IMG/VR virus record: IMGVR_UViG_3300032753_000003
Span: 32,001 to 96,000 of that record
Strand: one strand, 5' to 3'
Origin: a virus
DNA: 64,000 nt
Every line of letters starts with the position of its first letter. Position 1 is the first letter of the stretch. The notes beneath the pieces were generated by a model, which did no database searches, was not told the DNA's origin, and was given only the letters and a program-made list of their open reading frames with translations. This document shows, in pieces, positions 9,948 to 63,344 of this stretch. A program made the translations under genes and the position numbers.

Positions 9948-10328
9948 TTAGAACAGCTTTAGATGTCCAGTCACAGCATCTATCTTGTCTGCACTGTCTG
10001 GACCAACTGCCACCGTGGTTAGAGTTGGCACTCCGTTAAATTCAGTAAGACCGCTATCTCGGATGATACTGCAGATCAAACCAGCAGCTTGTGCTTTGGC
10101 ATAAATGTCAAGAAGTTCTTGTTCGCTGTCTACGCTAACACAAATCTTCTTGAACAAGCCTGTGATCCACGGCTTCAATCTATCGTCCATGTGCAAGGTT
10201 AGCGTATCACCGTGTACTTCACATTGATCCAATATGGCTTTGAGGCTGGCATGCGCCAACTGGGCCATCATTTTGCCTTTTCGACATTTTAAATCTTTTC
10301 TGACAACTATTACTTGTTTGTGATTCAT
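9948..10328 (-). CDS. pth2: Peptidyl-tRNA hydrolase, Pth2 (archaeal/eukaryotic) type
   Basis: KQVIVVRKDL...GKMMAQLAHA, KKICVSV, IRDSGLTE, TTVAVGP, IDAVTGHLKL. Confidence 0.92.
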   Translation of the reverse strand: MNHKQVIVVRKDLKCRKGKMMAQLAHASLKAILDQCEVHGDTLTLHMDDRLKPWITGLFKKICVSVDSEQELLDIYAKAQAAGLICSIIRDSGLTEFNGVPTLTTVAVGPDSADKIDAVTGHLKLF

Positions 10329-14528: not shown

Positions 14529-14604
14529 GCGCCGTTGGGCCAGATGGATGGCCGGTCAACTCTAAATCGACACAAGGTAGGTTCGATACCTACACGGCGC
14601 ACCA
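14529..14604 (+). tRNA. tRNA with CUA anticodon (amber suppressor type), 76 nt, encoded CCA
   Basis: Acceptor GCGCCGT/ACGGCGC, D stem GGCC/GGCC, anticodon stem GTCAA/TCGAC (one A-C mismatch) with loop CT-CTA-AA, T arm GTAGG-TTCGATA-CCTAC, A73-CCA. Confidence 0.9.
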
Positions 14605-24384: not shown

Positions 24385-25113
24385 ATGGTAGAAGACAATT
24401 TTTCCCCGCCGCCGGGTGTCCCCGTAAATGAAGTAATCATTTCGCCACCTCTTAACCAAATTCCTAAACCAGGCATTTCTACCGATAAAATATCCATAGC
24501 TGATTCTAGTAGTCCAATTGTACAAAATGCAGAAGCTACTCTAATAGATAGCACTGCTAACAGTGTCAGTGTTGACGACAAGATGGCTGAAAGAAAGCAG
24601 CATCTAGAAGAACTTAAATTCAAACTGGAAGAACGTAAAGTCGTTCACGACATGAAAGTTGAAATGCGCAAAATAGACTTTGCTGAAAGAGAACAACTCA
24701 AACAGGATAAATTAGTTGGCGCTGGCAATGATCATTGGTTGAAGACCTATTGGCGACCTGCTATGGCATGGCTATATGCTATTATATGTACCTGCGACTT
24801 CGTTGTATTTCCAGTATTATGGAATATGATACAGATATATAACAAACAACCAAATGTAACAGCTTGGGCCCCGCTTACTTTACAGGGCAGTGGGTTCGTT
24901 CACGTGGCATTTGGAGCTATATTAGGCGTGTCGGCATGGTCAAGAGGCAGAGAAACAACTACGGCTATGACAAACACCTATAGTAGTTTTCCAATTGGAA
25001 CTAGTTCTATGAGTTCTATAAGCCCTATGAGTTCCATAGGTGGTAACTATGGTAGCAATTATAGCAGTAGTAATAATAGCTACGGCAATTCATATAGCGG
25101 TTTACCTAGATAA
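24385..25113 (+). CDS. Putative holin (DUF3154/3TM-like) with long N- and C-terminal extensions
   Basis: WRPAMAWLYAIICTCDFVVFP and FGAILGVSAWSRGRE; next to spanins. Confidence 0.7.
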   Translation: MVEDNFSPPPGVPVNEVIISPPLNQIPKPGISTDKISIADSSSPIVQNAEATLIDSTANSVSVDDKMAERKQHLEELKFKLEERKVVHDMKVEMRKIDFAEREQLKQDKLVGAGNDHWLKTYWRPAMAWLYAIICTCDFVVFPVLWNMIQIYNKQPNVTAWAPLTLQGSGFVHVAFGAILGVSAWSRGRETTTAMTNTYSSFPIGTSSMSSISPMSSIGGNYGSNYSSSNNSYGNSYSGLPR

Positions 25114-26280
25114 GTTAGTTGCATTACGCCGAGTATTACCCCATTGTATAATAGAAACACTGTCTGTTGGTAATAATTTTCGCCACGGGTATATCACAAC
25201 TGATCCTTTAGCCATCTGTTCTAATTTATTACTATTATCAACGTCATGTGCAAGCAGATAAACAGCAGGGTTGTCTAAGATTGTATCGTAAGTTACTGTT
25301 GATCCATGCTCTATACAGTAATGTCCAACCAACTTGCTATAGCTTCCATCTGTGTACGGTACTCCTGGTTTGAAGCTCTCGCCTAGTATTACGATAGGTA
25401 AACCAACCTTAACCAACGCTTTGGCTATGTGTTCGGCTTGTACTTCTCTAGCGCGCATAATAGCATCAAACAGGTCGTACCCTAGATCCAATTCAGAAGC
25501 TAACCATCTCAATGCAATATTATCCCTGGGATGACAGGGACCACCGTCTCCCATCCCCGGTCTCATATATGAAGGTCCCATAATCCTCTTGGTACTATTA
25601 GCTAATGCATCTGCTACTATGTCTACGTTTATGTTGCCGATCTTCTCTGCAACATCTTGTATCATGTTAACCAAACCTAATTTAGCCGATATAAACGTAT
25701 TATAGAATATCTTTGTGCATTCCATCTCTTCCCAGGTTCCAACAATTATCCTAGGATTGTTTTCCGTAAGAGTTTTATAAAATCCAATCAAATTGTTGAT
25801 TTTATCATCTATAATACCCGACTCGTTACCTATCATTATCATTTCTGGATTTACCATGTCATATTCGACACTTCCCATAGCAATCAAGTAAGGGTTATAA
25901 ACAAAATACGAGTTTGGTATGATATTACTCAATTCTCTGCGAGTAGTACCCGGTAACACTGTGCTGATCAAAACAACTGTTTGATCTACAGTTAAAAGAT
26001 GGCTGATACTGTGTAATACATCTTTTACATAACTATAATCAAAATCTTTGTTTTCTAGATGGCTGCTAGGTTTGCTACCATCATATCGCGGATCGTGAGG
26101 CGTTTGCACAGCTATGAATATTATATCAGTATCTTTTACAACATCATCTAAACTATCAACAATAACAATTTGGTCACTTGTTACAGGTTTTATATCATAC
26201 CCTTTGACAGGATAATTTTTGGACATACATTCTGCTACTATTAACCCAAGTTTACCTAAACCTATAAATCCAATATTCAC
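25102..26280 (-). CDS. ugd: UDP-glucose/GDP-mannose dehydrogenase
   Basis: GFIGLGKLG, YNP, ECTKIFYNTF, GMGDGGPCHPRD, FKPG. Confidence 0.92.
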   Translation of the reverse strand: MNIGFIGLGKLGLIVAECMSKNYPVKGYDIKPVTSDQIVIVDSLDDVVKDTDIIFIAVQTPHDPRYDGSKPSSHLENKDFDYSYVKDVLHSISHLLTVDQTVVLISTVLPGTTRRELSNIIPNSYFVYNPYLIAMGSVEYDMVNPEMIMIGNESGIIDDKINNLIGFYKTLTENNPRIIVGTWEEMECTKIFYNTFISAKLGLVNMIQDVAEKIGNINVDIVADALANSTKRIMGPSYMRPGMGDGGPCHPRDNIALRWLASELDLGYDLFDAIMRAREVQAEHIAKALVKVGLPIVILGESFKPGVPYTDGSYSKLVGHYCIEHGSTVTYDTILDNPAVYLLAHDVDNSNKLEQMAKGSVVIYPWRKLLPTDSVSIIQWGNTRRNATNLSR

Positions 26281-27593: not shown

Positions 27594-29090
27594 ATGGAGA
27601 TGGAGAACGTCATGAAAACAGCTTCAAAGAACATTAAGAAAACATCTAATAAAAGTCCCGCTGTTACTACTAACAAGACAACCAAACAGTTGGATCCAGT
27701 AAAGTTGTATCTTCGAGATGTTAGCAAAGCTCCTCTACTCAACCACGCTAGAGAGATTGAGCTTAGTCAGACCATTGAGAATTCTAAGCAAACCATAATG
27801 GATACGTTGTTTGCTGTACCGCTCACAATCAAAACTGTATCACAGTGGATTGGCGAGATATCAGCTGGTTCTAAACCAGCAACTGACGTATTTGACGTTG
27901 AACTCGATGATGAAGATCTAATTACCGATAAATTCCGCGAACAACTTAATAAGTTTAATGTACTATGCGGTAGATATCTTGCAGATCTGGATATCAAGAG
28001 CGCCAAAGCTGAGCTAATTGCTGCATTTAATGATCTTCATCTAAACACAGCAGCAATGGGCAAACTTTTGAAAGATATCCAGGATCTTAACAAGAAAGTT
28101 ACTGCATGTGACGGACGCATGCTCAAATTGGCTACAGAATGCGGAATATCCAGAGAAGACTTCATTCAGGCGTATGTTGGCAATGAGCATATGCGTTGGC
28201 TACAGAGTATGAAGGGCAAGTCTTGGCAGAAGTTTGCCAACAAGCATAATGAGATCTTTGATATCGTAGGAGAAATGCAGAAATATGCAGATGATGCCGG
28301 GTTGGGTGTAACAGAACTACGCACAGCGGTTAAAGTTCTAACACAACAGGCGCGTGCAAAGGAAACAGCTATCAATGAAATGGTTACAGCCAATTTGCGA
28401 TTGGTAGTATCTGTTGCAAAGAAGTACAATCAGCAGAATAACAATCAGATATTGGATTTGGTACAGGAAGGTAATATTGGACTGATCAAAGCTGTAGAGA
28501 AATTCAAGTGGCAATTGGGTTATCGATTCAGTACATATGCTACATGGTGGATCCGACAGGCTATCATCAAAGCTGTAAATGAGCAGAACAAGACCATACG
28601 TATTCCAAGCCATGTTATGGATGCTGTCAAAAAGATCAACAAGGCTATCAAGGATCACGTTAACGCTACGGGACATGAACCAACCAATGCCGAAGTTGGT
28701 GTAATGTTGGGCATGTCTGAGGACAAAGTTGCTCGCATGTTGCGAGTAGCCAAAGATCCAATATCTCTAGAAACTCCTGTTGGAGATGAGGACAATGGTA
28801 CTCTAGGCAGCTACATCGAAGACACTGAAAGCGAGAATGCATTTGATCAGATCGCCAAAGCAGATGTCAACAAGGTTGTGGCAGATACGTTGTCTGGTCT
28901 TAGCAGCAGGGAAGAACGTGTGCTGCGTATGAGGTTTGGCATTGGCACAATGGAAGAATATACCCTTGAGGAAATTGGCAATAAGTTTAAAGTAACTCGA
29001 GAACGTGTTAGGCAGATTGAAAGCAAGGCGCTGAGTCGCTTGCGTAGTCCGCAGCGTGCCAAAGATTTGCAAAACGCAATCAACGATTAA
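27594..29090 (+). CDS. rpoD: RpoD-like primary sigma factor lacking region 1.1
   Basis: DPVKLYLR (1.2), non-conserved region, ANLRLVVSVAKKY, DLVQEGNIGL, FSTYATWWIRQAI, VTRERVRQIESKAL. Confidence 0.95.
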   Translation: MEMENVMKTASKNIKKTSNKSPAVTTNKTTKQLDPVKLYLRDVSKAPLLNHAREIELSQTIENSKQTIMDTLFAVPLTIKTVSQWIGEISAGSKPATDVFDVELDDEDLITDKFREQLNKFNVLCGRYLADLDIKSAKAELIAAFNDLHLNTAAMGKLLKDIQDLNKKVTACDGRMLKLATECGISREDFIQAYVGNEHMRWLQSMKGKSWQKFANKHNEIFDIVGEMQKYADDAGLGVTELRTAVKVLTQQARAKETAINEMVTANLRLVVSVAKKYNQQNNNQILDLVQEGNIGLIKAVEKFKWQLGYRFSTYATWWIRQAIIKAVNEQNKTIRIPSHVMDAVKKINKAIKDHVNATGHEPTNAEVGVMLGMSEDKVARMLRVAKDPISLETPVGDEDNGTLGSYIEDTESENAFDQIAKADVNKVVADTLSGLSSREERVLRMRFGIGTMEEYTLEEIGNKFKVTRERVRQIESKALSRLRSPQRAKDLQNAIND

Positions 29091-30756: not shown

Positions 30757-31692
30757 ATGGTAGATAGAATTACAAATGATAAACCCAACAGTTTAAACGT
30801 ATGTTGGGAACCTACCAGCACTTGCAATTATTCATGCTGGTATTGTCCAGAAGAACTGCATGACGGAAAATATAGATGGCCCGATTTAGATACAGCACTT
30901 TCATTCTTCAAAAATATTGCAGCTAAACGTGATACTGTACACATTGATATGGTTGGGGGTGAGCCAACGTTGTGGCCGGATATAGATGAGTTTCTAGATA
31001 AGAAGCCAGACAATGTTCATGTGGAAATCAGCAGCAATGGCGCAAGGACTGTTAGATGGTGGCGTCAAAATTTCTCTAAGATGGCAGGTGCTACGTTAAC
31101 CTTCCATCCCAACTCTGCCGATCCTGATCATTTTTATGACTTATGCGAAGCATTACATGATATGGATAAAGAACTGCATGTATTCATAATGGCAGTTAAG
31201 AGCAAGATTGATGTTTGTCAGTCGCTATTCACTAGGCTCAAAGAGTCTGGATTTAAGATCAGTGTAAGTACCAAGATGCTAGATGTACGACATGACGATG
31301 CTAGAATGCCAATAGCTGAAATAAATTCAGATGCAGACATAGTACATTTACTTAAAACCAATAGATTCAATAGACGCAAACACGGCAAATATGTTAGTAA
31401 GCCTAACATATCGTATTTGAACGGCGAAGAATTTGACCATCTGCTAGCACCTTTGCATAAGAAAAATTTATTCAAAGGTTGGACTTGCTGGGCAGGTGTT
31501 ACTAGATTATATATTAAACCAAACGGAGACATATATAGGGGATCTTGTCGCAACGGTGGTGTAATAGGTAATATCAACAACAATTTAGACATATTAGATA
31601 TTAAACCTGAGATTTGCCAACTAGCACAATGTAACTGTATTGATGAGATATTGATAGAAAAACATTATCCACTAAATGAGAATGAATCATGA
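30757..31692 (+). CDS. Radical SAM protein with C-terminal twitch/SPASM-like domain
   Basis: CNYSCWYC, GGEPT, SSNG; CWAG...RGSC...CQLAQCNC. Confidence 0.9.
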   Translation: MVDRITNDKPNSLNVCWEPTSTCNYSCWYCPEELHDGKYRWPDLDTALSFFKNIAAKRDTVHIDMVGGEPTLWPDIDEFLDKKPDNVHVEISSNGARTVRWWRQNFSKMAGATLTFHPNSADPDHFYDLCEALHDMDKELHVFIMAVKSKIDVCQSLFTRLKESGFKISVSTKMLDVRHDDARMPIAEINSDADIVHLLKTNRFNRRKHGKYVSKPNISYLNGEEFDHLLAPLHKKNLFKGWTCWAGVTRLYIKPNGDIYRGSCRNGGVIGNINNNLDILDIKPEICQLAQCNCIDEILIEKHYPLNENES

Positions 31693-33513: not shown

Positions 33514-35010
33514 TTAAGGGTGAGAATTTTTGTAAGTGTTAAATTCCAAAGTCAGCGCGTCTAGCTTTTCACTGAGCTCTTGTATAGCCTTAGTCAATAA
33601 CGGTACCAAGCTAGATTCGCGAATGCCCAATGATGTTTGCACAGTTCCGTCTTCTGTAATAGAATCACTACTTTCTATTACAGAACCAACATAATTGGTA
33701 TTAGCCAAGGTCGTTTGGACTTCCTGTGCTATGAAACCCACATGAGTTCCATCTGAGAAATCATGTTTACTGTCGTCAACAAACTCAAATGTAACTGGTC
33801 TCAATTGGTTAACTAAATCAAGTGTGCTATCTAAATCTGTTATATTTTTCTTATATTGCTGATCAGAAACATATATGATAGAATTAGCAACCCATATAGT
33901 TCCGTTTACTTGCAACGGGTATGCTCCGTTACTACTTGTGTATCCTATTAGTGTAGTTCCTGTTAATGTAGCACCAGAGGCCAGTATATTGCCGTCTATT
34001 TGTAATAGATATCCGCCCGAATTAACTACAGTATAGCCCATCAAGGTAGTTCCGCTAACAATTAGGTTTCCACCAATGATTGCATACCCATATGAAACGT
34101 TAAGGTTGCCCCCTTCTATGTAGACATTGCCGCTTACACCTAACCCACCGCCGACTGTTAACGCGCCAGTGTCATAGCTGGTGCTAGGAGTATTATTGAT
34201 TATGTTGAGTATATTTGATATTTGTCCGCCATTGAACTCTGGTCCAGTTGGACCCTGTGGACCGGTATATCCAATTGGTCCCATAGTACCGGCTATACCC
34301 TGACTTCCTGTAGGACCGGTAGGGCCGTTAGCAGGTCCTGTTGGACCTGTTGCACCAGTGTTAGCTGCAGTTCCGTCTGCACCTGTCGGACCAAAAGGAC
34401 CGGTCGGTCCGCCGGGTCCAGTTGGCCCGGGATATCCTTGTTCTCCAGTAGGACCAGTAACAACGCTCGGTGCACCTGTAGCACCTGGATATCCTGTTGG
34501 ACCTATTGATCCAGTTGGACCGGTACTACCCATAGGACCAAGCGGACCTATAATACCTGTTGGACCTGTAACACCAATAGGACCTGTAACACCAATTGAA
34601 CCAGTTGGTCCTGTAACGCCAGTTGGTCCAGTTTTACCTATACCAGTTGGTCCAAACGGCCCAATTGGTCCGGTTGCACCTGTTGGACCTGTTGCACCAG
34701 TGTTAACTGCTGTTCCTGGTATTCCCGTTGGACCGGTTGGACCTCCTGCGGGTCCTGTAGGACCTGTTGCACCAGTGTTAACTGCTGTTCCTGGTATTCC
34801 CGTTGGACCGGTTGGACCGGTAGAACCTATTTGGCCATAAGCGCCTGTTGGGCCAGTTGAACCAGACGGACCTCGGTTTCCAGTTGGCCCTGTTGCGCCC
34901 GTATTAACAGCATAACCTGCTGCTCCAGTCGGGCCAGTTGGACCTCCTGCGGGACCTTGCGGACCAGTTGGTCCCATTTGATTTATAACCGGATATGTGT
35001 AAACGCTCAT
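33514..35010 (-). CDS. Collagen-like (Gly-Pro-Thr) fibre protein with C-terminal peptidase S74 intramolecular chaperone
   Basis: About 250 aa of G-X-T triplets; SDQQYKKNI...LRPVTF...GFIAQEVQ...AIQEL chaperone motifs; ATAAATA 35038-35044. Confidence 0.9.
34685..34818. repeat. Exact 59-nt direct repeat within the collagen region
   Basis: 34685-34743 identical to 34760-34818 (75-nt period). Confidence 0.85.
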
Positions 35011-41316: not shown

Positions 41317-41385
41317 GCACAGTTATTTATTTTAAAATAACCTATTGCATTATTGTGTCATCTGTTGTATAAATATGTTGTGGAT

Positions 41386-41394
41386 GGATAGACC
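41386..41394 (+). promoter_or_regulatory. GGATAGACC hairpin motif upstream of nadM
   Basis: GATGG-ATAGA-CCGTC, 31 nt before ATG 41426. Confidence 0.5.
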
Positions 41395-41425
41395 GTCCGC
41401 TCAAAAATACGTAGTAGGATTTACT

Positions 41426-42496
41426 ATGACACACACTTATGATATTGCCGTATTCATCGGCAGGTTTCAACCGCTACATTTAGGACACTGTCACGTTATT
41501 GAAAGTGCGCTTGATCGAGCAGATCATGTATGCATCTTGGTTGGATCGTCGTATATGCCTCGCAGCTATCGCAATCCTTGGCTCTTTGAAGAGCGCAAGG
41601 AAATGATCCTAGAAAGTTTTGCTAGCCAGCGCGATCGCATCACGGTTCTAGCCCTAGAAGATACTATCTACAACGATTCTCAGTGGGTACAGAATGTACA
41701 ACATCTGGTATCTAATGTAGTGGTTGACCAGTTTGGTCCCAATATCGTGCATACTGGCAGATATCCTAGGATCGCATTAATCGGACATAGCAAGGACAAT
41801 TCCAGCTACTATCTCAAGCTATTCCCACAGTGGGAGTCAGTCAACGTCCCAGGTTACGTCAATGAGGAATTTGTACTGGCTGCTACCAACATTCGAGATT
41901 GGTACTTCAGCAAGGACAGCGACTACTTCCTTAGAATTGAAGCTCGGCATCTGACACCAGCTGTTAGCAAGTTCTTGGCTAAGTTCAACAAGACCGAAGT
42001 ATTCAAGAACATTGTTGAAGAATACGAGTTTGTGCAGAGCTACAAGAATGCGTGGGCTGCTGCTCCATATGCACCAACGTTTGTGACTACAGATGCTGTT
42101 GTTGTGCAGAGCGGACACATCTTGCTAGTCAAGCGCAAGGCTCGTCCCGGTAAGGGGCTGTGGGCGCTGCCGGGTGGCTTCCTCAATGCTAATGAGCGCA
42201 TTGAAGATGGTGTACTCAGGGAACTGCGGGAGGAAACTAAGATCAAGGTACCTTTGCCAGTACTTCGAGGCAGCATTGTTGCAAACAGGGTGTTTGATGA
42301 TCCCTATCGCAGTAGCCGCGGCAGGACCATTACACATGCGCATCTGATCAACCTAGCACCCGACACAGTTCTACCTCAAGTCAAGGGGTCAGATGATGCT
42401 GAAAAGGCTCGTTGGGTTCCTCTTGCAGAAGTTAAGCGCGAAATGATGTTCGAAGATCACAAAGATATAATTGATTGCCTTACAGCGTTGATCTGA
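41426..42496 (+). CDS. nadM: Bifunctional NMN adenylyltransferase / Nudix ADP-ribose pyrophosphatase
   Basis: FIGRFQPLHLGH, NPW.FEER; Nudix box ALPGGF...EDGVLRELREET; GSDDA. Confidence 0.95.
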   Translation: MTHTYDIAVFIGRFQPLHLGHCHVIESALDRADHVCILVGSSYMPRSYRNPWLFEERKEMILESFASQRDRITVLALEDTIYNDSQWVQNVQHLVSNVVVDQFGPNIVHTGRYPRIALIGHSKDNSSYYLKLFPQWESVNVPGYVNEEFVLAATNIRDWYFSKDSDYFLRIEARHLTPAVSKFLAKFNKTEVFKNIVEEYEFVQSYKNAWAAAPYAPTFVTTDAVVVQSGHILLVKRKARPGKGLWALPGGFLNANERIEDGVLRELREETKIKVPLPVLRGSIVANRVFDDPYRSSRGRTITHAHLINLAPDTVLPQVKGSDDAEKARWVPLAEVKREMMFEDHKDIIDCLTALI

Positions 42497-43168: not shown

Positions 43169-44551
43169 ATGTTTAAGAACTTACTTTTGAATACAGATAG
43201 TTACAAGCCAAGCCACACATTCCAGTACCCACCGGGCACTGAATATGTTTACAGCTACATTGAATCACGCGGCGGCCGCTTTGACCGCACAGTGTTCTTT
43301 GGGCTGCAGATGTGGTTGAAGGAATATCTCAGCAACCCGATCACTCGCGCGGATATCGAAGAGGCGGCTGAATTTTGGGCAGCACACGGAGAACCATTCT
43401 ATCGCGAAGGCTGGGAGTATATCCTAGAAAAGCACAACGGACATTTGCCAGTTGTGATCAATGCAGTTCCCGAAGGTACTGTGGTACCAGTCAAGAACGT
43501 GCTGGCTACGATTGTCAACACAGATCCCAAGTGCTGGTGGCTGCCCGGCTTCCTTGAAACTGCAATGCTGCGAGCTGTTTGGTACCCAACTACGGTTGCT
43601 ACCAACAGTTGGTACTGCAAGCAGATCATCAAGGCTGCACTGGAAAAGAGCAGTGATGATCAAGCTCAGGTAGTGTTCAAGCTGCATGACTTTGGCGCCC
43701 GTGGTGTTAGCAGTCAGGAATCGGCGGCTATTGGCGGTGTTGCACATTTGGTTAACTTCATGGGTTCAGACACGGTTGCAGGGGTACTAGCAGCACGCAA
43801 GTACTATCATGAGCCAATGGCTGCGTTTAGTATTCCTGCTGCTGAACACAGTACCATTACCAGTTGGGGTCGTGAACATGAAGTAGATGCATATCGCAAC
43901 ATGCTCAAGCAGTTTGCCCGGCCGGGCTCACTGGTGGCAGTGGTCAGCGATAGCTATGACATCATGAATGCTACTAGCAATATCTGGGGCGGTGTACTCC
44001 GTGATGAGGTCGTTGCATCCGGTGCCACAGTGGTTGTGCGTCCTGACTCCGGCAATTCTCTCACAGTGCCAGTAGACGTAGTTGCTGCTCTTGCTGACAA
44101 GTTTGGTTATACTGTCAACAGCAAGGGTTACAAGGTGCTGCCCGGGTGTGTTAGGGTAATCCAGGGAGACGGTATCACACCAGATACTCTACCTGTTATC
44201 CTAGACAACTTGCTAGCTGCTGGATTTGCAGCAGACAACATTGCATTTGGTATGGGTGGTGGCTTGCTACAGCAGGTCAATCGCGACAGTCAAAGGTTTG
44301 CAATGAAGTGCAGTGCTGTGATGATCAACGGTACTTGGCGAGAAGTGTTCAAGGATCCTGCGGGAGACCACAGCAAGGCCAGCAAGCGCGGGCAGTTGGC
44401 ACTGATCAACGACGGCGAAGGTTGGCAGACAGTGTCTCGAGAGGGCAATGCATGGAGGGATCAGTTGCTACAAGTATGGCGCAACGGCGATCTACAGCAG
44501 GAGTGGACACTGGCTGAAATCCGCGAACGTTCTAACTCAGTATCAATGTAA
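43169..44551 (+). CDS. nadV: Nicotinamide phosphoribosyltransferase (Nampt)
   Basis: LNTDSYKPSH, LHDFGARG, SIPAAEHS, VVSDSYD, VRPDSG, QGDG, FGMGGGLLQ. Confidence 0.97.
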   Translation: MFKNLLLNTDSYKPSHTFQYPPGTEYVYSYIESRGGRFDRTVFFGLQMWLKEYLSNPITRADIEEAAEFWAAHGEPFYREGWEYILEKHNGHLPVVINAVPEGTVVPVKNVLATIVNTDPKCWWLPGFLETAMLRAVWYPTTVATNSWYCKQIIKAALEKSSDDQAQVVFKLHDFGARGVSSQESAAIGGVAHLVNFMGSDTVAGVLAARKYYHEPMAAFSIPAAEHSTITSWGREHEVDAYRNMLKQFARPGSLVAVVSDSYDIMNATSNIWGGVLRDEVVASGATVVVRPDSGNSLTVPVDVVAALADKFGYTVNSKGYKVLPGCVRVIQGDGITPDTLPVILDNLLAAGFAADNIAFGMGGGLLQQVNRDSQRFAMKCSAVMINGTWREVFKDPAGDHSKASKRGQLALINDGEGWQTVSREGNAWRDQLLQVWRNGDLQQEWTLAEIRERSNSVSM

Positions 44552-47495: not shown

Positions 47496-48028
47496 TGCTT
47501 TGGCTATTATCCTTACATGAAGTGCAGTTCCTGTTGGCAATTTGGTTAATTCAGTTGATGTATGCCGCTGTTGTAACTGTAGGATGCAAATGGAATTGGA
47601 AATCCAAAGCTATAGCTATACCTATTTTATTTGCCGCTTGCTATCAAACCATAATGGTAAGTAACAGTCTATTGGGAACTCCCAAATTTACCAACGATGA
47701 AATTACTGGAACGCTAGCTGGATATGCTGAATTTAAAAATGGGGATCAAAAGGAATTAGCAGTTCTGCTAATTACCAAAACTGGTCCTATCATGTTTGCA
47801 GTACCGTATGATCCAAAGTCTGAGACAGACCTAAGGCAAGCTATGAATCAATTAGCTACCACAGGAAAACCCACGTTGGTTAGAAAGAAATCCAATAATC
47901 AGCTGCAGAATGCAAAACAAACTAATAAGAACGGCAAAGAAGGTCAAGGCAATCAAGTTTCTGGGAATTTAGAATTGTATGATTTCACAGACCAATTGCT
48001 AGTTCCTAAAGGCCAGAAGGATCAATAA
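47495..48028 (+). CDS. Membrane protein, third gene of the ExbBD-like cassette
   Basis: Two N-terminal TM helices; coupled start/stop at 47495. Confidence 0.7.
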   Translation: MLWLLSLHEVQFLLAIWLIQLMYAAVVTVGCKWNWKSKAIAIPILFAACYQTIMVSNSLLGTPKFTNDEITGTLAGYAEFKNGDQKELAVLLITKTGPIMFAVPYDPKSETDLRQAMNQLATTGKPTLVRKKSNNQLQNAKQTNKNGKEGQGNQVSGNLELYDFTDQLLVPKGQKDQ

Positions 48029-49061
48029 CCTTAAATGTAAACACCTTGTGTTCGCCATCGCGCAATACACTGAGTTCTACGGTATCGCCTGGTTTGGTTA
48101 ATTGCGTCTCGTAAATTAACTCTTCTGGTAATTTTACATCTACCCACTGTCGATTTGATGCAGGAGTTCTTATTGCAATTATTTCATCATTTGGTAGTAA
48201 CCCTGCAGCCACAGCCGGGCTATTTTTAGATACAGCTGAAACAGCAATATGATGCTGATCTTTACTGGGACCTAATAGCAACCCTATCTTACCAACTTTG
48301 ATCTTGCCGCCATCTAATAGGTCATTTACTACCTTCTTGGCATAATCGCTTGGTATAATAAGGCCAAAATATCCTTCTCTACCAAAAATAGCTGTGTTAA
48401 TACCTATCACATTTCCTCTGCTATCAAATAGAGGTCCTCCACTGTTGCCCGGATATATCGGAGTTGTGGTCTGCATATAATATTCAGGACTGTCATCATC
48501 ATGTCTAAGCTTATTGCTAATGATGCCCTGTGCTACAGTCCAAGATAGTCCATACGGGTGTCCTATGCTCCATACTATGTCGCCAACATTCAACGCTCTA
48601 CTACTACCCCACGACAATATAGTTGGATGCTCAACTGCCACAAAGTCATCCCATTCATCAATCTTTATTACAGCAATGTCTGCGTTTGCATCAGTTGCTA
48701 TAACAGTCGCGTTATAGGGTTTCATATCATCATAACCAATTACCTTTATCTTGCGGTCTTTACCTGCAATAACATGATTGTTGGTAACGATTATGTTCGG
48801 AGCTATTATAAATCCAGTACCCAAACTGGAATGATGGTCGGGATCATTATCTTTATCATTATTATGATCTTTATCGGCATCTGGTTTTATGGGTTCTTCT
48901 TTTTTAGGCGTGGGAACCGCTGGTAATTTATCATCAGTATTTGGTGGAAGATTACTCACCAAAACTACACTTGAAAGCCGTTGATTGCTCATGGTGCTTA
49001 TCGTGTCAGAGCATGAAACTAGAGACAAGCAAGCTAGCATCATTGTGATAAATTTAATCAT
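48006..49061 (-). CDS. htrA: HtrA/DegP-like serine protease lipoprotein (trypsin + PDZ)
   Basis: Lipobox LVSC; TNNHV, DIAVIK, GNSGGPL triad; C-terminal PDZ; TATAAATA 49066-49073. Confidence 0.92.
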   Translation of the reverse strand: MIKFITMMLACLSLVSCSDTISTMSNQRLSSVVLVSNLPPNTDDKLPAVPTPKKEEPIKPDADKDHNNDKDNDPDHHSSLGTGFIIAPNIIVTNNHVIAGKDRKIKVIGYDDMKPYNATVIATDANADIAVIKIDEWDDFVAVEHPTILSWGSSRALNVGDIVWSIGHPYGLSWTVAQGIISNKLRHDDDSPEYYMQTTTPIYPGNSGGPLFDSRGNVIGINTAIFGREGYFGLIIPSDYAKKVVNDLLDGGKIKVGKIGLLLGPSKDQHHIAVSAVSKNSPAVAAGLLPNDEIIAIRTPASNRQWVDVKLPEELIYETQLTKPGDTVELSVLRDGEHKVFTFKVIDPSGL

Positions 49062-50631: not shown

Positions 50632-50748
50632 TTTGATCTCCGCGGCGAATGTCTCGTTAGATTATTTATCTATTCATTGCTGTAAAATAATTGCAAATAT
50701 ATCGGCTAAAAGTTTATAATTAAACTATTATAGTCTATAAGGTTTATC

Positions 50749-51705
50749 ATGATTGATCATCAATACATTCGCTTAGAACATTCTAATCCAGATAGCAAAA
50801 ATTGGTTTGTAGTTAACTGGTGTCTCGGTAACACTTGTAATTTCTCTTGTAGTTATTGCCCGTCTGGATTACACGATGGTTCAACCAAATGGCCCGAACC
50901 AGACACCATAAAGAATTTTATAGATAAGGTAAAACTAACACACAACGACAAGAACATTTATTTTGAGTTTACAGGAGGCGAAGTAACTGTTTACAAGCAT
51001 TTTATCGACATATGCAAATATTGTACTGAACTTGGCATTAAGGTTGGTATGATATCAAATGGCTCTAGAACTCTGCGTTATTGGGAACAAAACAAACATT
51101 TCTTTGATCATGTTTGCCTCAGTTTTCATCCTGAGTTTACTGACAAAGATCATTTTGTAGAAGTAGTTAAGATATTACACAACGAGTTGCGAGTACATGT
51201 TAACATCATGATGAGTCCATCTAAGTTTGATTATTGTTATGATGTAGCAAACACTGTAAAAGATTTAGGTAATATCAGCATGGCATTACAACCTCTAATA
51301 CATGACTTTGGAGATAAACTCTTTGACTATACACCAGAGCAGAAAGATATATTAACAAACCAATATAAATTAATAATCAGACATATTAAGTTTACTAAAA
51401 GTTTTCAATTCTACCGCGGCGCAATGAAAAAAGTAAATTCAGATGGAACCTCAGAGGTTCAACCCGCACATAAATTCATATCAACTAATACAAACGATTG
51501 GTCTGGATGGAATTGTTATGCCGGAGTTGAACAGTTAATAGTAGATATGGACGGTAGTGTACATCGAGGTTGGTGCAAAGTAGGGAAACCAATAGGTCGC
51601 ATAACAGATAATGATCTCCAGCTACCAACGAATCCAATACTTTGCGACAAGACCATGTGTCATTGTAACTATGATATCATGAGTACCAAGGAAAAAATTA
51701 TATGA
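50749..51705 (+). CDS. Radical SAM protein with C-terminal twitch/SPASM-like domain
   Basis: CNFSCSYC, FTGGEVT, ISNG; CYAG...RGWC...CDKTMCHC; paralog of 30757. Confidence 0.92.
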   Translation: MIDHQYIRLEHSNPDSKNWFVVNWCLGNTCNFSCSYCPSGLHDGSTKWPEPDTIKNFIDKVKLTHNDKNIYFEFTGGEVTVYKHFIDICKYCTELGIKVGMISNGSRTLRYWEQNKHFFDHVCLSFHPEFTDKDHFVEVVKILHNELRVHVNIMMSPSKFDYCYDVANTVKDLGNISMALQPLIHDFGDKLFDYTPEQKDILTNQYKLIIRHIKFTKSFQFYRGAMKKVNSDGTSEVQPAHKFISTNTNDWSGWNCYAGVEQLIVDMDGSVHRGWCKVGKPIGRITDNDLQLPTNPILCDKTMCHCNYDIMSTKEKII

Positions 51706-52970
51706 GACAATTAATTTCGCTAGATGAGTCTAATACCAATAAACAAGTTAGGCATTACGACAAAGACGGATATTACATAAGACTAAGTGTAGATGAAACC
51801 ATAGCAAATAATCTCAACGAATGGCAAGGATGGCATTGCAGTGCCGGTATAAGTGGTTTATACATAGATTATGATGGTAATGTATGGACATGCAATACCG
51901 CTGGATCAAAACTTGATAGGTTTAATAGTACTGAATGGGAAAAAACTTTTAAACCATATATTGACCCATTTGGTCCAAATATACCGCTCGAATGGCAAGG
52001 CGATGGCAAAAAATGGTTAAATCTTCTCAAAAAGTTTAACGCACGTGATATTGCATTTGCAAAATTAGTACCTGCAACAAAAGAAAATAAAGAAAAGTAT
52101 CCTGGGTTTTTAGGAAATATCAAAGAAGGTTTTGAATTACCAACTACTTGGTTTAAATGCCCTTGGCAAGCATGCGGGTGCGGCGCAGATGTATTTCTAG
52201 CTAAATCAAAATCAAAACCAACCCAAGATAATTTACCTGTATTTTTTAAAGGGGATCTGGGGCAAGCTGAAACTAAAAATAAATTAGTAAAAGATATTCC
52301 AAAAGAGGACATCATAGGAATTGAAATAAATTTTCATAAACCCTATCAAATATTGTGGGATTTAGGTAGGCGATGCAATTATGACTGTTCTTATTGTTGG
52401 TCGGGCGTACACAATCGAGACGGTGCTCATTTAACCCTAGACGAAATGGTTAATACAGCAGATAAGATAATTGCCAAATGGTCAAAAGGAGAATCAATAA
52501 GGTGGAACTTTGGCGGCGGCGAACCTACACTAAATCCAAACTTCTTAGATTTTTTGAAATACCTAAAATCTAAAAACCAATGGGTATTGGTAACCACCAA
52601 CGGCAGCAGACCCAATACATATTGGAGCAAGGCTGTTGAATATGTCAACAGCATAAATCTCAGTGTTCATTTTGAATTTGCTGATGAAAATAAAATGTTG
52701 CTCAATATAAAAGCAATATGCGAACATTTCGATCAGCATGATGACGATCATTGGCTAGAAATAAAATTAATGGCGCCGCCTGCATATGTTGAACAAGCAG
52801 TTAATTTTAAAAAGACAATATTATCAAAAACTGATATATTAAATACCGGAGCTAATGGTCGTTTAAAAGGTACTGTTAGTATTGTTCCTATCAGAGGCAT
52901 TGACGATAGTAGTCATATTATTGACTACAACAACACACAACTCGAACTATTGAAGAGTCAAGATACATGA
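51702..52970 (+). CDS. Radical SAM protein with N-terminal twitch-like domain (permuted order)
   Basis: WHCSAG...WTC...CPWQACGC first, then CNYDCSYC, FGGGEPT, TTNG. Confidence 0.9.
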   Translation: MRQLISLDESNTNKQVRHYDKDGYYIRLSVDETIANNLNEWQGWHCSAGISGLYIDYDGNVWTCNTAGSKLDRFNSTEWEKTFKPYIDPFGPNIPLEWQGDGKKWLNLLKKFNARDIAFAKLVPATKENKEKYPGFLGNIKEGFELPTTWFKCPWQACGCGADVFLAKSKSKPTQDNLPVFFKGDLGQAETKNKLVKDIPKEDIIGIEINFHKPYQILWDLGRRCNYDCSYCWSGVHNRDGAHLTLDEMVNTADKIIAKWSKGESIRWNFGGGEPTLNPNFLDFLKYLKSKNQWVLVTTNGSRPNTYWSKAVEYVNSINLSVHFEFADENKMLLNIKAICEHFDQHDDDHWLEIKLMAPPAYVEQAVNFKKTILSKTDILNTGANGRLKGTVSIVPIRGIDDSSHIIDYNNTQLELLKSQDT

Positions 52971-55291
52971 ACCAATCAGAATTAGATAAAATCTATTTAG
53001 AAAAATTAAAATCTTGTGAAAATTATATTGAGCGAATATCGTTACTCAACAACAGCGATTGTCCTCTATGGTTGATTGAATTATATTGCACTGCTGACAT
53101 AGAGTTTGATGTTGCAAAAGCCGCAGCGCTGGATCCAAGAGCCTTACATTCCTGGGTTATGGTTGCAATCAACAGATTTCCAAACCTCAATAACGACAAC
53201 TTTTGGAAAACTAAAAAAAATCGTTTAGAAGTATATAATCGACTTCTCGAAATAAAACAGCTTGAAGACGAAGCAGGCCCAAACATGTCTGGTGATCGAG
53301 ATCAGATTATCATGGAACATATAAAGAAAGTAGATGATATTAAAAAGACCATTGGACATGCAGAAGCGCATCTTGGTACTTTCGAATTAAAAAATGATTT
53401 AACATTAGTAAATTCAGATATACCTTGGGCCGAAACTGATAAATTTAGAATAGCTTTGGTAATGGCACCTGCATGGGGTATTTTATTTCCCCCGTATAAC
53501 ATAGCAAAATTAACTGGGCTTTTGAGAAATGATGGTTACAGTGTTAAAGTATATGACCTCAATATAGAATCATATTATCATTTGTTAAAGCAAACCAATC
53601 AAGATTTTTGGAGATCTGAAAAATATTTTCTTTGGGTAAATGAACAAAATTTTGAAAAATATATTTTACCTTATTTAGAGTCACTTTTTTTTGAAACTAT
53701 AAAAAACATTGTCAGTTCAAACCCAAAAGTCATTGGATTTAGTGTATACAATACCAATTTATATGCAACATGGTATTTGATTAAAGAAATTAGACTAGCA
53801 TTGCCCGATGTATGTATAATAGTAGGTGGTCCTGAAATCGCTACAATGCCGGGGTCAATGGCGCGTTCATTGGTTAATTATATATTTGTGGGCGAAGCTG
53901 AAGAAAATCTATTAAATGTATTAAAAGAAATAGCTGATCAAACAACTTATCCGATAGATAAAACTATTGGGTCTACTGCAAGCCGACTCAATTTAGATCA
54001 GTTTCCCTATCCCGACTATACTGATTATAATTTAAATAATTATTTGCATCAGGACGGCGTTAGCATAGAAACGTCTCGAGGATGTGTTGCACAATGCAGT
54101 TTTTGCGCAGAAACATATTTTTGGAAATTTCGCAGTATGTCACCCGAAAGAGTAGTTGATGAGATAGAATATCAACTAAACAAACACGGTATAAAAAGAT
54201 TTTGGTTTGTTGATAGTTTGGTTAATGGAAATCTTAAAAATTTCTCAAAGGTAGTAGATTTGATAATAGAAAGAAATTTAAAGATTGACTGGAATAGCTA
54301 TGCTCGATGTGATGGTAGAATGACTGCAGATTTCTTAAAACGTGTAAATCAAAGCGGATGTACTTGTTTAAGTTTTGGTGTAGAGTCTGGCAGTCAAAAA
54401 GTACTAAATGATATGCGTAAAAAAATAGAAATTTGGGAAATAGAAAACAATCTTAGAGACGGACACAACGCTGGCATGTTTAATCATGTCAATTGGATTG
54501 TGGGATTTCCCACAGAAGAACCAATTGATTGGTTACATAGTCTGCAATTGCTCTATAATTGCAAGGATTGGATAAGCTCAATAAGTCCCGGCTTCACCGC
54601 TGGACCTGCCGAATCTAGTCATACACATACACATTGGCAACTGTATGATATACAATGGAAAGAAAAACCCTGGGACAATAAATTTTTAGACTCTTGGTAT
54701 ACTGGTGATTATAACAATACAAAATTACATAGATTTATAAGACTTAAATTAACACATGTCTGGTTAGAACTAATTGAAAACCATACTTCGGGTATCATTG
54801 TAGATGGCCAAAAAGATGAAAGAATTAAAGACTTTTTTACATTTTCAGTTTCAAAACCTACGTCGGTCGTTTACATACCATGTGAAAATTTTGTCAAGTT
54901 AGATAGGGTATCTAATGATACTTTTAGCAAGAAGATTATGAATGAGTATTTTGCATTCCTTTACGCATTATACATATACTTTGGTGAATGTGAGTTTGAA
55001 TTTACTTGCGATAAAAATAGAGATTTAACTGTGTTTGGTAATTATCTAGCATCAGTATATAACTGTAACCTAAAATTCAAAATTGATTCAAACGGAAATT
55101 ATAAAATTAATATCAAACACAACCTAATACATGACACAGACGATGATAGACTCAAACAAATATATGCTATCGAAAGAGAAAGAAAAGATATGAGTTTTAA
55201 TGATTCATATTTTCATGTAGGTAATATTAACGATTGGAAAACAACTATAAATCAAACTAAAGAAACTATACACGCTGCATATAGAAAATAA
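52967..55291 (+). CDS. Cobalamin-binding (class B) radical SAM protein
   Basis: PPYNIAKL...IGFSVY...IVGGP B12 domain; TSRGCVAQCSFC; FGVESGS; IVGFPTE. Confidence 0.92.
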   Translation: MNQSELDKIYLEKLKSCENYIERISLLNNSDCPLWLIELYCTADIEFDVAKAAALDPRALHSWVMVAINRFPNLNNDNFWKTKKNRLEVYNRLLEIKQLEDEAGPNMSGDRDQIIMEHIKKVDDIKKTIGHAEAHLGTFELKNDLTLVNSDIPWAETDKFRIALVMAPAWGILFPPYNIAKLTGLLRNDGYSVKVYDLNIESYYHLLKQTNQDFWRSEKYFLWVNEQNFEKYILPYLESLFFETIKNIVSSNPKVIGFSVYNTNLYATWYLIKEIRLALPDVCIIVGGPEIATMPGSMARSLVNYIFVGEAEENLLNVLKEIADQTTYPIDKTIGSTASRLNLDQFPYPDYTDYNLNNYLHQDGVSIETSRGCVAQCSFCAETYFWKFRSMSPERVVDEIEYQLNKHGIKRFWFVDSLVNGNLKNFSKVVDLIIERNLKIDWNSYARCDGRMTADFLKRVNQSGCTCLSFGVESGSQKVLNDMRKKIEIWEIENNLRDGHNAGMFNHVNWIVGFPTEEPIDWLHSLQLLYNCKDWISSISPGFTAGPAESSHTHTHWQLYDIQWKEKPWDNKFLDSWYTGDYNNTKLHRFIRLKLTHVWLELIENHTSGIIVDGQKDERIKDFFTFSVSKPTSVVYIPCENFVKLDRVSNDTFSKKIMNEYFAFLYALYIYFGECEFEFTCDKNRDLTVFGNYLASVYNCNLKFKIDSNGNYKINIKHNLIHDTDDDRLKQIYAIERERKDMSFNDSYFHVGNINDWKTTINQTKETIHAAYRK

Positions 55292-55316
55292 ATCAAACAA
55301 CAGGTTGAGATAATAT

Positions 55317-56630
55317 ATGACTAATACTATTTGTTCGTTACCGTGGCACCATCTTTCATTACAACAAAACGGAGATTATAGAATCTGTTGCCAGATGATA
55401 CATCATCCTTTTGGAAAATTAAATACTGATAACAACGATTATTTGAATATTAAAAACACCAGCATGAATGATGTTAGAAACCATGAGATATTGAAAGAAC
55501 TTAGAAAAAGCATGTTGAATGGAGAACAACACAGTTTGTGCAATTTGTGTTGGACGGAGGAAGCAAGCGGGTTAAATTCGAAAAGAATTTTTATGAATAA
55601 TCAAATACCGAGCGATCATATACAATATATGATCAATAATACTGATCAAGATGGATAAATAGATCCAAATTTATTTCCAATTAGTTATTATGATATAAGA
55701 TTTGGAAATCTCTGTAATCTAAAATGCAGAAGTTGCAGTGCAAGTGATAGCTCGCTGTGGTATGAAGACCATGAGAAGTTAACTGGTTCAAATAATTTTT
55801 GGTTTTATGGTAGAGAAAATTACTATAAAATAATCAATAACAACAATACCTATGATGTAAATTTTGATGATTTCAAATGGTATGAAGATGAAAACTTTTG
55901 GAATGAATTTAAATCAAATATACATAATACAGAAATTGTTTATATAACAGGTGGCGAACCAACAATAAACAAAGCACATTTTAGATTGTTAGATTTGTGC
56001 ATATCAGAAGGTGCTGCACATAATATCAAACTTGAATATAATTCAAATATGTTTGCTGTACCTGATAAACTTTATAACCTATGGAAAAATTTTAAACATG
56101 TATCTATTGGGTGCAGCATCGATGGTAAAGACAAAATGGCAAATTATCTCAGACCGCCAAGCACCTGGGATAGATTAGAAAAAAATCTAAATAAATTAGA
56201 TTCAAGTGATAATCAAAATATAACTGCCGCTATAAGCACCACAGTGAGCGTGTATAATGTTTTACATTTTTTAGATTTCACTGATTGGCTATTGTCTAAG
56301 GAATATAAAATTATAGGGAATATACCAGTATTTCATATGTTAGACGGTCCGCATCGTTATAGCGTACAGGTGCTACCAAAAGACGTAAAAAAGAAAATCA
56401 CTAAAACTTATGAAAATTACTACAATCGAGTAAAAAGTAAATTTGGTATTACAATATCTAGAGAAATTGAAAGCACGTACTCTGGTATTATCAACTATAT
56501 GAACTTAGAGGATAAATCCAACCTATTACCTAAACTAGCAGATTCAACCTATCGTTTGGATGCAATAAGAAATCAACAACTAGCAGATGTAATTCCTTGG
56601 TTAGATGAAATACTAAAAAATTTTGTATAA
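55317..56630 (+). pseudogene. Twitch-domain radical SAM protein with one in-frame TAA (55656-55658)
   Basis: Frame is continuous: CSLPW...CC...CNLC...TDQDG*IDPN...FGNLCNLKCRSC...TGGEP...YNSN. Confidence 0.88.
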
Positions 56631-62714: not shown

Positions 62715-63344
62715 ATGAGTCAAGACTTAGAGCAACTGTTAGAACAGTATAAACACGCTCTGCAGCACTATGCAGCTATCCCGGGCGAAGTTGGTGCTAG
62801 GGCTAGGGTAGCTCTAGATGGGCCTTTGGCTGTCATGGACAGTCCTTACCTCATTAGATATAACGCTGAACTGAATTACAATCCCAATTTTGGCGACAAT
62901 CGCAAATGCAAATGTGGTCATCCATACTTCAGACACTTTGATCCATATGAAGACAATCGTGCAGTTGGATGCAAATACTGTCACTGTTATACATTTGTAT
63001 GTGAATCAATTGACACTACCTGGAAGCTGTTCCTAGATGATGAACGCGATCCAGTTGATGACAGTTGGATAGTGTGCCGTACTGTATTAACTGCTATAGG
63101 TGAATGTACTGCAAGAGGCTTACCAACCTATATCAACTTTGATCATGATCTCGGTAACAGCGGTAACGATCATCCCATGTTCAAAGACGGCATAGGATTT
63201 GCTCACTGGATGATTGAAGAGGTGCTAAATGACAGATGGACTTTGCCCAAAAACTTTGATTGGTATGTGCATAGCCAGAACCCCATTGGTGCAGAAAACA
63301 TCAATGCGTTGATGCACAATTGGATGCGATCGCTGGGGAGATAA
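62715..63344 (+). CDS. Cys/His-rich domain fused to a cyclic-phosphate-processing receiver-like (cREC) domain
   Basis: CKCGH...H...CKYCHC; LFLDDERDP, FDHDLG, VHSQNPIG. Confidence 0.7.
   Translation: MSQDLEQLLEQYKHALQHYAAIPGEVGARARVALDGPLAVMDSPYLIRYNAELNYNPNFGDNRKCKCGHPYFRHFDPYEDNRAVGCKYCHCYTFVCESIDTTWKLFLDDERDPVDDSWIVCRTVLTAIGECTARGLPTYINFDHDLGNSGNDHPMFKDGIGFAHWMIEEVLNDRWTLPKNFDWYVHSQNPIGAENINALMHNWMRSLGR

Follow-up and report, generated by a model that had tools for sequence, protein, structure and literature searches.

What would a phage make with four adjacent genes that all encode radical S-adenosylmethionine (SAM) enzymes? The question is raised by a 5.9-kb operon, genes g1 through g4, that lies in the 64,000-nucleotide stretch of DNA analyzed here, which is from a giant lake phage. 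This stretch (the window) comprises bases 32001-96000 of the 199,865-base IMG/VR record IMGVR_UViG_3300032753_000003, termed contig C1; coordinates prefixed with C1 follow the numbering of the whole record, and all others are those of the window. As judged from its proteins and their relatives, the operon is a single instance of an accessory cassette that is conserved among large, uncultured phages of aquatic habitats, and the function that we tentatively favor for this cassette is the radical tailoring of a sugar or glycan. CheckV estimates the completeness of the record at 39%, which implies a phage genome of ~500 kb. Approximately 61% of this genome lies outside the record, and the absence of a gene from the 200-kb contig is weak evidence.

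Four radical SAM genes in one operon

The operon is real. Genes g1 and g2 overlap by 4 nucleotides, as do g2 and g3, and a gap of 25 nucleotides separates g3 from g4. All four genes encode the CxxxCxxC motif (C30/C34/C37 in g1, C225/C229/C232 in g2, C373/C377/C380 in g3, and C133/C137/C140 in g4 when the latter is numbered by reading through an internal stop codon described below). Each product falls within the radical SAM superfamily, as evident by PF04055 scores of 45.7, 55.3 and 61.0 bits for g1, g2 and g3 and of 42 bits for the g4 core, all of which exceed the gathering cut-off of 29.5 bits. The GC content of the operon is 33.1% versus a contig mean of 40.1% (standard deviation 2.6), and is the lowest among 388 segments of equal size. 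A preliminary description of this locus, made from its letters alone, had noted a visibly AT-rich operon of four radical SAM genes that includes no precursor, transporter or protease gene, and both observations are upheld. No such gene occurs inside the operon, and no recognition element (RRE) for ribosomally synthesized and post-translationally modified peptides (RiPPs), protease domain or transporter domain is present among the Pfam and NCBIfam matches in or beside it. A sequence resembling a sigma-70 promoter precedes g1 (Table 1), but the number of promoter-like sites in the region equals the expectation from shuffled sequence, so this match is weak. An Rfam scan of the window returned no family at its gathering score, and hence no cobalamin riboswitch.

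By its domain order and predicted fold, the product of g3 is a class B radical SAM enzyme, for which the use of cobalamin is predicted. A B12-binding domain (PF02310) at residues 230-317 scores 43.7 bits (cut-off 32.1 bits) and is followed by the radical SAM core at residues 367-528, and the protein also carries a helical N-terminal domain (approximately residues 1-125) and a C-terminal alpha/beta domain (approximately residues 540-774). The AlphaFold2 (AF2) model of g3 has a predicted local distance difference test (pLDDT) value of 84.5. The top Foldseek matches are OxsB (5ul3), TsrM (6wtf), AprD4, CysS (9n1b), MgmA (9ccb) and TokK (7kdy), and the chains of OxsB, TsrM, TokK, CysS and MgmA are each matched with a probability of 1.0 and E values from 5e-13 to 2e-10. 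One of these fold neighbors, AprD4, has a B12-binding domain but uses no B12. A CobS_N domain (PF12556) is absent from the 200-kb contig.

The characterized class B equivalogs do not account for g3. All 23 of its NCBIfam matches, which cover the TIGR03975 RiPP C-methyltransferase, PhpK, BchE, HpnR, BzaD, the MCR Gln methylase and others, fall below their cut-offs, and the best of these (TIGR03975) reaches 130 versus 281.85 bits. A sequence search of PDB with g3 returned nothing useful. Homologs of g3 with E<1e-200 form more than 120 clusters, nearly all of them metagenomic, and we assign the protein to a large clade that is essentially confined to metagenomes and large uncultured phages.

When read through its internal TAA codon, g4 belongs to the NF033640 (N_Twi_rSAM) family, with a score of 359.9 bits against a cut-off of 170 bits over model positions 2-397. 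The TAA lies inside this match, and g4 thus lacks the single uninterrupted frame of the family. Its twitch domain precedes the radical SAM core and contains four cysteines (C6, C24, C75 and C78) that are invariant in an alignment of 40 sequences, plus one further cysteine that is nearly so. All 25 residues that are invariant in this alignment are present in g4, as they must be given that g4 is one of its rows. The AF2 model of the read-through protein forms one compact unit (pLDDT 94.7, predicted TM score 0.91), whose best fold matches are SPASM/twitch enzymes (CteB, anSME/anSMEcpe, SkfB, SuiB) and viperin, all with TM scores of 0.3-0.45. A PDB sequence search with g4 yielded nothing useful.

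Genes g1 and g2 encode related enzymes whose domains are arranged in opposite order. In g1, the radical SAM core is followed by a C-terminal twitch-like domain with five cysteines (C256, C276, C299, C304 and C306), whereas in g2 a twitch-like domain with the same number (C46, C64, C153, C158 and C160) precedes the core. Comparison of the two proteins by BLASTP aligns the cores (g1 20-170 with g2 215-373, E 9e-19) and, separately, the cysteine domains (g1 244-316 with g2 34-170, E 2e-7 and 0.017). Because these matches occur in swapped order, we interpret g2 as a circular permutation, and hence a paralog, of g1. The permuted form is itself widespread: its homologs (43-58% identity) make up more than 120 clusters, and in almost every case the match extends over 94-100% of the query. 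For g1, clustering at 50% identity yields a family of 355 clusters (E<=1e-30), most of which contain proteins of 310-330 amino acids.

Neither protein reaches the cut-off of a named family. Scores for prokaryotic viperin (NF038283, viperin_w_prok; cut-off 180 bits) are 57.5 bits for g1 and 56.1 bits for g2 and derive from only the first ~100 residues of the core, and those for the STM4011 family (NF038073; cut-off 200 bits) are 56.4 and 26.1 bits, respectively. Despite sharing the domain order of g4, g2 scores only 31.6 bits with NF033640 and is not a member. Sequence searches of PDB returned nothing useful for g1 and weak viperin matches only for g2. The SPASM seven-cysteine motif (CX9-15GX4C...CX2CX5CX3C...C) is absent from g1, g2 and g4, and the cysteine counts of all three proteins fit a twitch domain that would hold one cluster. 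The preliminary assignment of three twitch/SPASM enzymes and one B12-dependent enzyme stands for g3, but the auxiliary domain is C-terminal only in g1 and N-terminal in both g2 and g4. As far as profile matches can tell, none of the four proteins reaches the cut-off of a characterized family, and g4 read through matches only NF033640.

A cassette of large uncultured phages

A scan of IMG/VR for relatives of g3 identified homologs in 22 loci with 43-56% identity. At least one NF033640-type gene, and often two, lies within ~3 kb in 21 of these loci, and the sole exception (L020) is a 6.8-kb contig that starts inside its g3 homolog. Ten loci, the window included, also carry a gene of the g1/g2 type, and the g1 ortholog in one of them (L018) is 63% identical. 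The related loci represent at least five different genomic contexts, and the genes that flank the operon in the window are matched in none of them. CheckV estimates for five of the related contigs indicate genomes of several hundred kb. In a collection of 5.8 billion proteins, g2, g3 and g4 each have more than 100 close clusters, almost exclusively metagenomic, many of which coincide in the length of their longest contig (9, 8 and 24 coincidences), and judging from these coinciding lengths the metagenomic homologs of the three genes appear to share contigs. These data are consistent with a cassette whose core would be the phage-clade class B enzyme g3 traveling with N-terminal-twitch enzymes of the g4 (NF033640) type, to which this lineage adds the g1/g2 pair.

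Cultured phages, represented by the INPHARED set, offer no close counterpart. A megablast search with the operon found nothing, and a tblastn search with g3 found no close homolog, only partial matches with 23-26% identity (Streptomyces phage SF3 and fecal contigs). The matches of g4 and g1 are distant and occur in KVP40-like Vibrio phages, Ralstonia phage RsoM2USA, Campylobacter phage CP220 and HTVC008M. We considered RsoM2USA as a direct model for the cassette and ruled it out, as the matching region of this phage holds one distant N_Twi-like gene (PF04055 27.6 bits, below the cut-off) among ORFs that resist annotation, with no B12 partner, and the phage is absent from the g3 tblastn matches. 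The preliminary description would have been refuted by membership of these proteins in characterized families with unrelated housekeeping roles and by an operon that is not conserved. On the contrary, no characterized family cut-off is reached, solved structures show no close match, and the cassette recurs in its relatives.

Two of the flanking loci in the window have recognizable functions. A gene for an HtrA-like trypsin-PDZ serine protease (48006-49061, minus strand) is located 1.7 kb upstream of g1, in the opposite orientation. This gene is probably unrelated to the cassette, because it has no match in the related loci. On the plus strand, a pair of NAD salvage genes encodes a cytidylyltransferase-like and Nudix fusion of the NadM type (41345-42496) and NAMPT/NadV (43169-44551).

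The preliminary description had treated the fourth gene as intact, and this point must be corrected. The g4 frame that begins at position 55317 stops at a TAA (55656-55658) and then remains open for 323 codons to position 56630, which leaves the twitch domain and the radical SAM core on opposite sides of the stop (Table 1). In the 120 best clusters, by comparison, homologs of g4 are single uninterrupted proteins of 408-585 amino acids, at most 57% identical to g4 and nearly all with 98-100% coverage. In the 40-sequence alignment, the stop coincides with the Ser/Thr column of a nearly invariant DG[S/T]ID motif, and a one-base change from TCA suffices to generate TAA at this site. The first ATG, GTG or TTG past the stop is 109 codons away, beyond the CxxxCxxC motif, with none between the stop and the motif. 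A single stop divides 22 pairs of same-frame open reading frames (ORFs) on the contig, and g4 is the only case without a nearby restart. Systematic recoding of TAA is ruled out by this comparison and by the use of TAA to end both g3 and g4, and a functional split of g4 is unlikely given that a canonical start codon is reached only past the cluster motif. Because no restart precedes the motif and g4 is the sole such case among the 22 pairs, we read the TAA as an isolated nonsense codon that represents neither recoding nor a designed split.

This codon may have arisen by recent mutation, may represent a minority allele, or may be an assembly or sequencing error, or it may be rescued by read-through or by a suppressor encoded in the unseen 61% of the genome. 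Because g4 carries it, the pathway may be incomplete in this assembly. The multi-step phage pathway with an unknown product that was proposed earlier agrees with a cassette that is conserved and uncharacterized, but that proposal had missed the nonsense codon. There are 37 tRNA genes on the contig, of which one has a CUA (amber-reading) anticodon and none has a UUA anticodon. ARAGORN locates the CUA tRNA at 14529-14604 of the window, and the Rfam scan noted above did not report this or any other tRNA.

A more pessimistic explanation for the stop is that the operon was recently acquired and is now decaying, non-functional cargo in this phage. No restart codon precedes the cluster motif of g4, UAA is read by both release factors, and no tRNA with a UUA anticodon is present in the 200 kb. 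The unusual base composition of the operon also points in this direction, as does a second damaged copy of the cassette: the g3 homolog in one related locus (L029) is matched in two frames (8001-8738 and 8720-10039) and apparently is frameshifted, so together with the g4 stop a broken gene is present in more than one contig copy. However, the lesion in the operon is a single one. Genes g1 through g3 are intact, the 323 codons after the stop remain open in DNA of 31% GC, and every invariant alignment residue is retained in g4, albeit in a list defined with g4 included. Moreover, the unseen part of the genome could hold an ochre suppressor in a phage that already carries an amber suppressor tRNA, and the stop may be a one-base assembly error. 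We therefore regard decay as unlikely, and it would in any case be compatible with a sugar- or glycan-tailoring role for the cassette family.

The substrate of the cassette

The genes that accompany the cassette in its relatives suggest a substrate class. In one phage group, a gene for a GT9-like glycosyltransferase separates the twitch genes from the B12 gene, and a fiber-like protein is encoded downstream. The Pfam match of this GT9-like protein (E 0.004) is below the cut-off, but ESM Atlas supports the assignment both by features (score 0.97) and by structure (TM score of 0.69 to GT9). In a second group (group B), the g3 homolog is fused to ~460 extra residues, and the cassette includes genes for an Asp/Asn-hydroxylase-like cupin, a DUF6071 protein, a UDP-glucose dehydrogenase (phrog_9148, E 3e-91) and a carbamoyltransferase; two members further encode a Glyco_transf_7C-LamG protein, with the gene for a tail sheath in the vicinity. 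The cassettes of group A reside between genes for DNA ligase and the endonuclease UvdE. A contig from a marine metagenome-assembled genome (MAG), L032, carries one co-directional run that encodes a g2-like protein, an N_Twi protein, a 2-oxoglutarate (2OG) oxygenase, two sulfotransferase-like proteins, a CMP-sugar cytidylyltransferase, a HAD/nucleotidyltransferase protein, a B12 enzyme and a carbamoyltransferase. Finally, an Oligoflexia MAG contig (CAJXPQ010000006.1; L034:1-19762), which may represent a cellular version of the cassette, has ~7 radical SAM genes (g1-like, N_Twi and two B12 types) interleaved with genes for an MBOAT acyltransferase and three weakly matched GT-C-like membrane proteins. 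A carbamoyltransferase gene is found on the same record in nearly every sampled lineage with a g1/g2-type gene; the Oligoflexia contig is the exception, with no carbamoyltransferase match within the 20 kb examined. Among the accessory families, the profiles of c27 and c7 matched nothing in PDB, ESM Atlas gave no lead for c7, and the searches made yielded no assignment for c4, c5 and c7.

We tentatively favor radical tailoring of a sugar or glycan because enzymes that activate, transfer or decorate sugars recur independently as partners of the cassette in four of the unrelated contexts, and because neither a conserved small ORF, RRE, protease or exporter, as expected for a peptide product, nor a hydroxymethylase-type gene, as expected for DNA, was found. 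The preliminary description had listed four product classes without choosing among them; the neighborhoods of the relatives favor its glycan or sugar class, and DNA, tRNA and peptide products are less favored. From the same neighborhoods we infer the types of reaction that might be involved. Most likely, the four enzymes would act in sequence on a carbohydrate, which could be a nucleotide-activated sugar or a glycan bound for the virion (fiber or capsid) or the host envelope. The [4Fe-4S] cluster held by each CxxxCxxC motif would reductively cleave SAM to yield a 5′-deoxyadenosyl radical, which would abstract a hydrogen atom from the sugar. The twitch enzymes might then oxidize, epimerize, dehydrate or rearrange the sugar while using their auxiliary cluster as an electron sink, and the B12 enzyme g3 would methylate, or rearrange, an unactivated carbon.

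A more specific proposal is that the B12 enzyme and its N-twitch partners form an obligate multi-enzyme system for an undescribed radical sugar transformation. This transformation could be a C-methylation or branching or a skeletal rearrangement, joined by carbamoylation or sulfation in the richer versions of the cassette, and it would serve to decorate virions or to remodel the host surface of giant aquatic phages, with the four-gene operon as its minimal core. Taken as a whole, this proposal is doubtful.

Several facts weigh against a carbohydrate substrate. The link to sugars is one of guilt by association and comes from other genomes, and some of the sugar annotations in those genomes are weak, with both PMT_2 and GT9 Pfam matches below the cut-off. 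In the window, no glycosyltransferase or sugar-activating gene is present in or adjoining the operon, whose neighbors (the HtrA-like protease, the NAD salvage genes and unannotated genes) are unrelated to such chemistry, and a search of the 200-kb contig for GT9 and GT2 genes found none. Among solved structures, g4 most resembles, though weakly (TM scores of 0.35-0.45), SPASM/twitch enzymes that modify peptides, and the NCBIfam model that g3 matches best, with less than half of the cut-off score, describes a RiPP C-methyltransferase. Class B enzymes are not all methylases, as exemplified by OxsB and BchE. Lastly, the cassette may be decaying cargo in this phage, given the stop codon within g4 and an AT content of the operon that is the highest along the contig.

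The resemblance to peptide-modifying enzymes deserves consideration in its own right, as the cassette could instead cross-link, methylate or epimerize a ribosomal peptide or a virion protein such as a fiber. SPASM/twitch RiPP maturases and class B C-methyltransferases of the PoyC type act on peptides in these ways. CteB, anSMEcpe, SkfB and SuiB are the nearest folds of g4 and TIGR03975 is the best NCBIfam match of g3, but these matches are far under family cut-offs or have low TM scores. The Asp/Asn beta-hydroxylase-like cupin inside group B cassettes and the tail-fiber-like protein and tail sheath genes that adjoin some cassettes would also suit a protein substrate. However, no small ORF is conserved beside the cassette across lineages (precursors of less than 45 amino acids were not searched systematically), the Pfam and NCBIfam matches include none of the recognition, protease and transporter domains that mark a RiPP cluster, and four of the unrelated contexts bring sugar enzymes instead. 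We consider a peptide or protein substrate to be distinctly improbable.

The phage could also use these enzymes to hypermodify nucleic acid, either its own DNA bases or its own tRNAs. Its 37 tRNA genes, the intact NF033640 paralog that is located within the tRNA array (see below) and the position of group A cassettes between DNA ligase and UvdE genes could be viewed in this light, as could the nucleotide substrate of OxsB, the top fold match of g3, and the weak viperin-like matches of g1 and g2. But the similarities to viperin (57 versus 180 bits) and to OxsB (15% identity) are those of a generic core, no gene of the thymidylate-synthase/hydroxymethylase family was found in the 200 kb, no hallmark genes of DNA modification occur near any cassette, and the neighbors in the relatives are sugar enzymes. 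Of the explanations that we weighed, this one is the least probable.

Rather than a polymer, the product might be a free small molecule, resembling an aminoglycoside or a nucleoside analog, that is made during infection to counter host defenses or competitors. The enzymes that tailor aminoglycosides include twitch enzymes of the BtrN/DesII/AprD4 type, class B enzymes of the GenK type and carbamoyltransferases of the TobZ type, and this set resembles the one found in the relatives. Accordingly, AprD4, DesII and BlsE are among the fold matches, and a carbamoyltransferase is encoded both in the relatives and by the same phage. However, genes for a scaffold synthase, an exporter or resistance were not seen, and the cassettes tend to be located near fiber or sheath genes and polymer-acting glycosyltransferases (GT9). 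We judge such a product to be improbable.

The same phage carries sugar-related genes away from the operon. A dehydrogenase gene of the UDP-glucose/GDP-mannose type in the window (Table 1) is a possible pathway partner, as suggested by its co-occurrence with the cassette. Beyond the window, the record holds genes for a carbamoyltransferase (C1:103541-104995) that is 46% identical to the cassette-linked one, for an NAD-dependent sugar epimerase (C1:6283-7029) and for an A-type Fe-S cluster carrier (PF01521; C1:179551-179856), the last of which agrees with the reported association of Fe-S assembly genes with phages rich in radical SAM enzymes.

Two additional radical SAM genes had been noted at a distance from the operon in the preliminary description. 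Both are present and are radical SAM genes (Table 1), and the record holds one more: an intact NF033640 gene with a score of 221 bits (C1:110656-111771, equivalent to approximately position 78656 in window numbering and outside the window) is the seventh radical SAM gene of the contig. This gene sits within a tRNA array, between genes for tRNA-Ser (110445-110537) and tRNA-Gly (114277). The distant N_Twi_rSAM-like paralog is preceded by a 420-amino-acid gene (18073-19335, plus strand) that ends 1 nucleotide before it and is translationally coupled to it. The product of this upstream gene has no match in Pfam, PHROG or NCBIfam, and it is a possible partner of the paralog.

Table 1. Positions of the operon genes and of related features, in window coordinates.
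Feature	Position	Strand	Description
g1	50749-51705	+	Radical SAM gene, 318 aa
g2	51702-52970	+	Radical SAM gene, 422 aa
g3	52967-55291	+	Class B radical SAM gene, 774 aa
g4	55317-56630	+	Radical SAM gene with one in-frame TAA
g4, N-terminal part	55317-55658	+	Twitch domain; PF13186 27.1 bits (partial); NF033640 positions 2-103, 91 bits
g4, C-terminal part	55659-56630	+	Radical SAM core; NF033640 positions 109-397, 263 bits
Sigma-70-like promoter match, TTGCAA-18-TATAAT	50691-50720	+	28 nt upstream of g1; 10 of 12 positions; weak evidence
N_Twi_rSAM-like distant paralog	19337-20566	+	409 aa; NF033640 135.9 bits (below 170); 16% identity to g4 in the 40-sequence alignment
g1-like radical SAM paralog	30757-31692	+	311 aa; phrog_13987 E 1.1e-15; PF04055 50.4 bits
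UDP-glucose/GDP-mannose dehydrogenase	25102-26280	-	PF00984, PF03721; 55% identical to the one adjoining the cassette in group B phages

Three other proteins of the window are noted here for their domains. One is an RpoD-like full-length sigma-70 factor (regions 1.2, non-essential, 2, 3 and 4; 27594-29090, plus strand), and another carries a cREC_REC (cyclic-phosphate processing receiver) domain (62715-63344, plus strand). The third (33514-35010, minus strand) combines collagen repeats with a Peptidase_S74 (endosialidase chaperone) domain at its C terminus, a layout that we take to be that of phage tail-fiber or tailspike proteins.

The cassette is of interest because radical SAM enzymes, and the B12-dependent ones above all, are a main source of newly found enzyme chemistry, and the g3 clade, despite its hundreds of metagenomic clusters, includes no tested member. 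If sugars are what the cassette edits, it would reveal new monosaccharides on virions or infected cells, with consequences for the recognition of hosts, for superinfection exclusion and for how phages survive in lakes and oceans, and it would account for the Fe-S carriers of such phages and for their dependence on host cobalamin. With its four genes alone, the operon represents a minimal set for heterologous reconstitution, for which an intact ortholog would be preferable given that g4 is broken here.

Comparison with known systems

Radical SAM genes have been noted before in large aquatic phages. The host recognition cluster of pelagimyophages includes radical SAM cassettes together with glycosyltransferases, UDP-glucose dehydrogenase and tail fibers (Zaragoza-Solas et al., 2020; PMC7029224). 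Up to 12 radical SAM genes are present in T4-like genomes from the environment, which encode Fe-S carriers as well (Nishimura et al., 2017; PMC5332604). The cassettes of these pelagimyophages and cyanomyophages resemble the one described here in that they occur in variable islands of large aquatic phages, alongside Asp/Asn hydroxylase, sugar and fiber genes. However, the two papers only mention these cassettes, and describe no family, B12 partner, permutation or function for them, and the operon in the window consists of a bare set of four genes with no adjoining sugar or fiber genes. Our literature search found no described function for NF033640 (N_Twi_rSAM) or for a phage B12 radical SAM cassette.

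Among enzyme families, the computationally defined NF033640, for which no tested member was found, is the closest to g4, in which an N-terminal four-cysteine twitch domain likewise precedes the radical SAM core, and the difference is that a TAA interrupts the g4 frame where these domains join. Similarly, g3 shares with the solved class B enzymes a B12-binding Rossmann domain that is located before a CxxxCxxC radical SAM core. It differs from these enzymes in sequence (13-18% identity), and ~125 N-terminal and ~235 C-terminal residues of g3 have no counterpart in them (TMq 0.36-0.42).

The chemistry that we tentatively propose for the cassette has its nearest parallels in the biosynthesis of aminoglycosides and deoxysugars. 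BtrN, DesII and AprD4 (twitch or related) and GenK (class B) would share with the cassette the abstraction of a hydrogen atom from a sugar carbon, followed by oxidation, dehydration or C-methylation, and AprD4, DesII and BlsE appear among the fold matches of the cassette proteins. In contrast to those enzymes, the cassette proteins show no membership in the same families at the sequence level, the auxiliary domain of g2 and g4 is N-terminal, and the genes are borne by a phage with no aminocyclitol or scaffold genes. Set beside all of these examples, the operon is a conserved system and a new variant among phage radical SAM cassettes.

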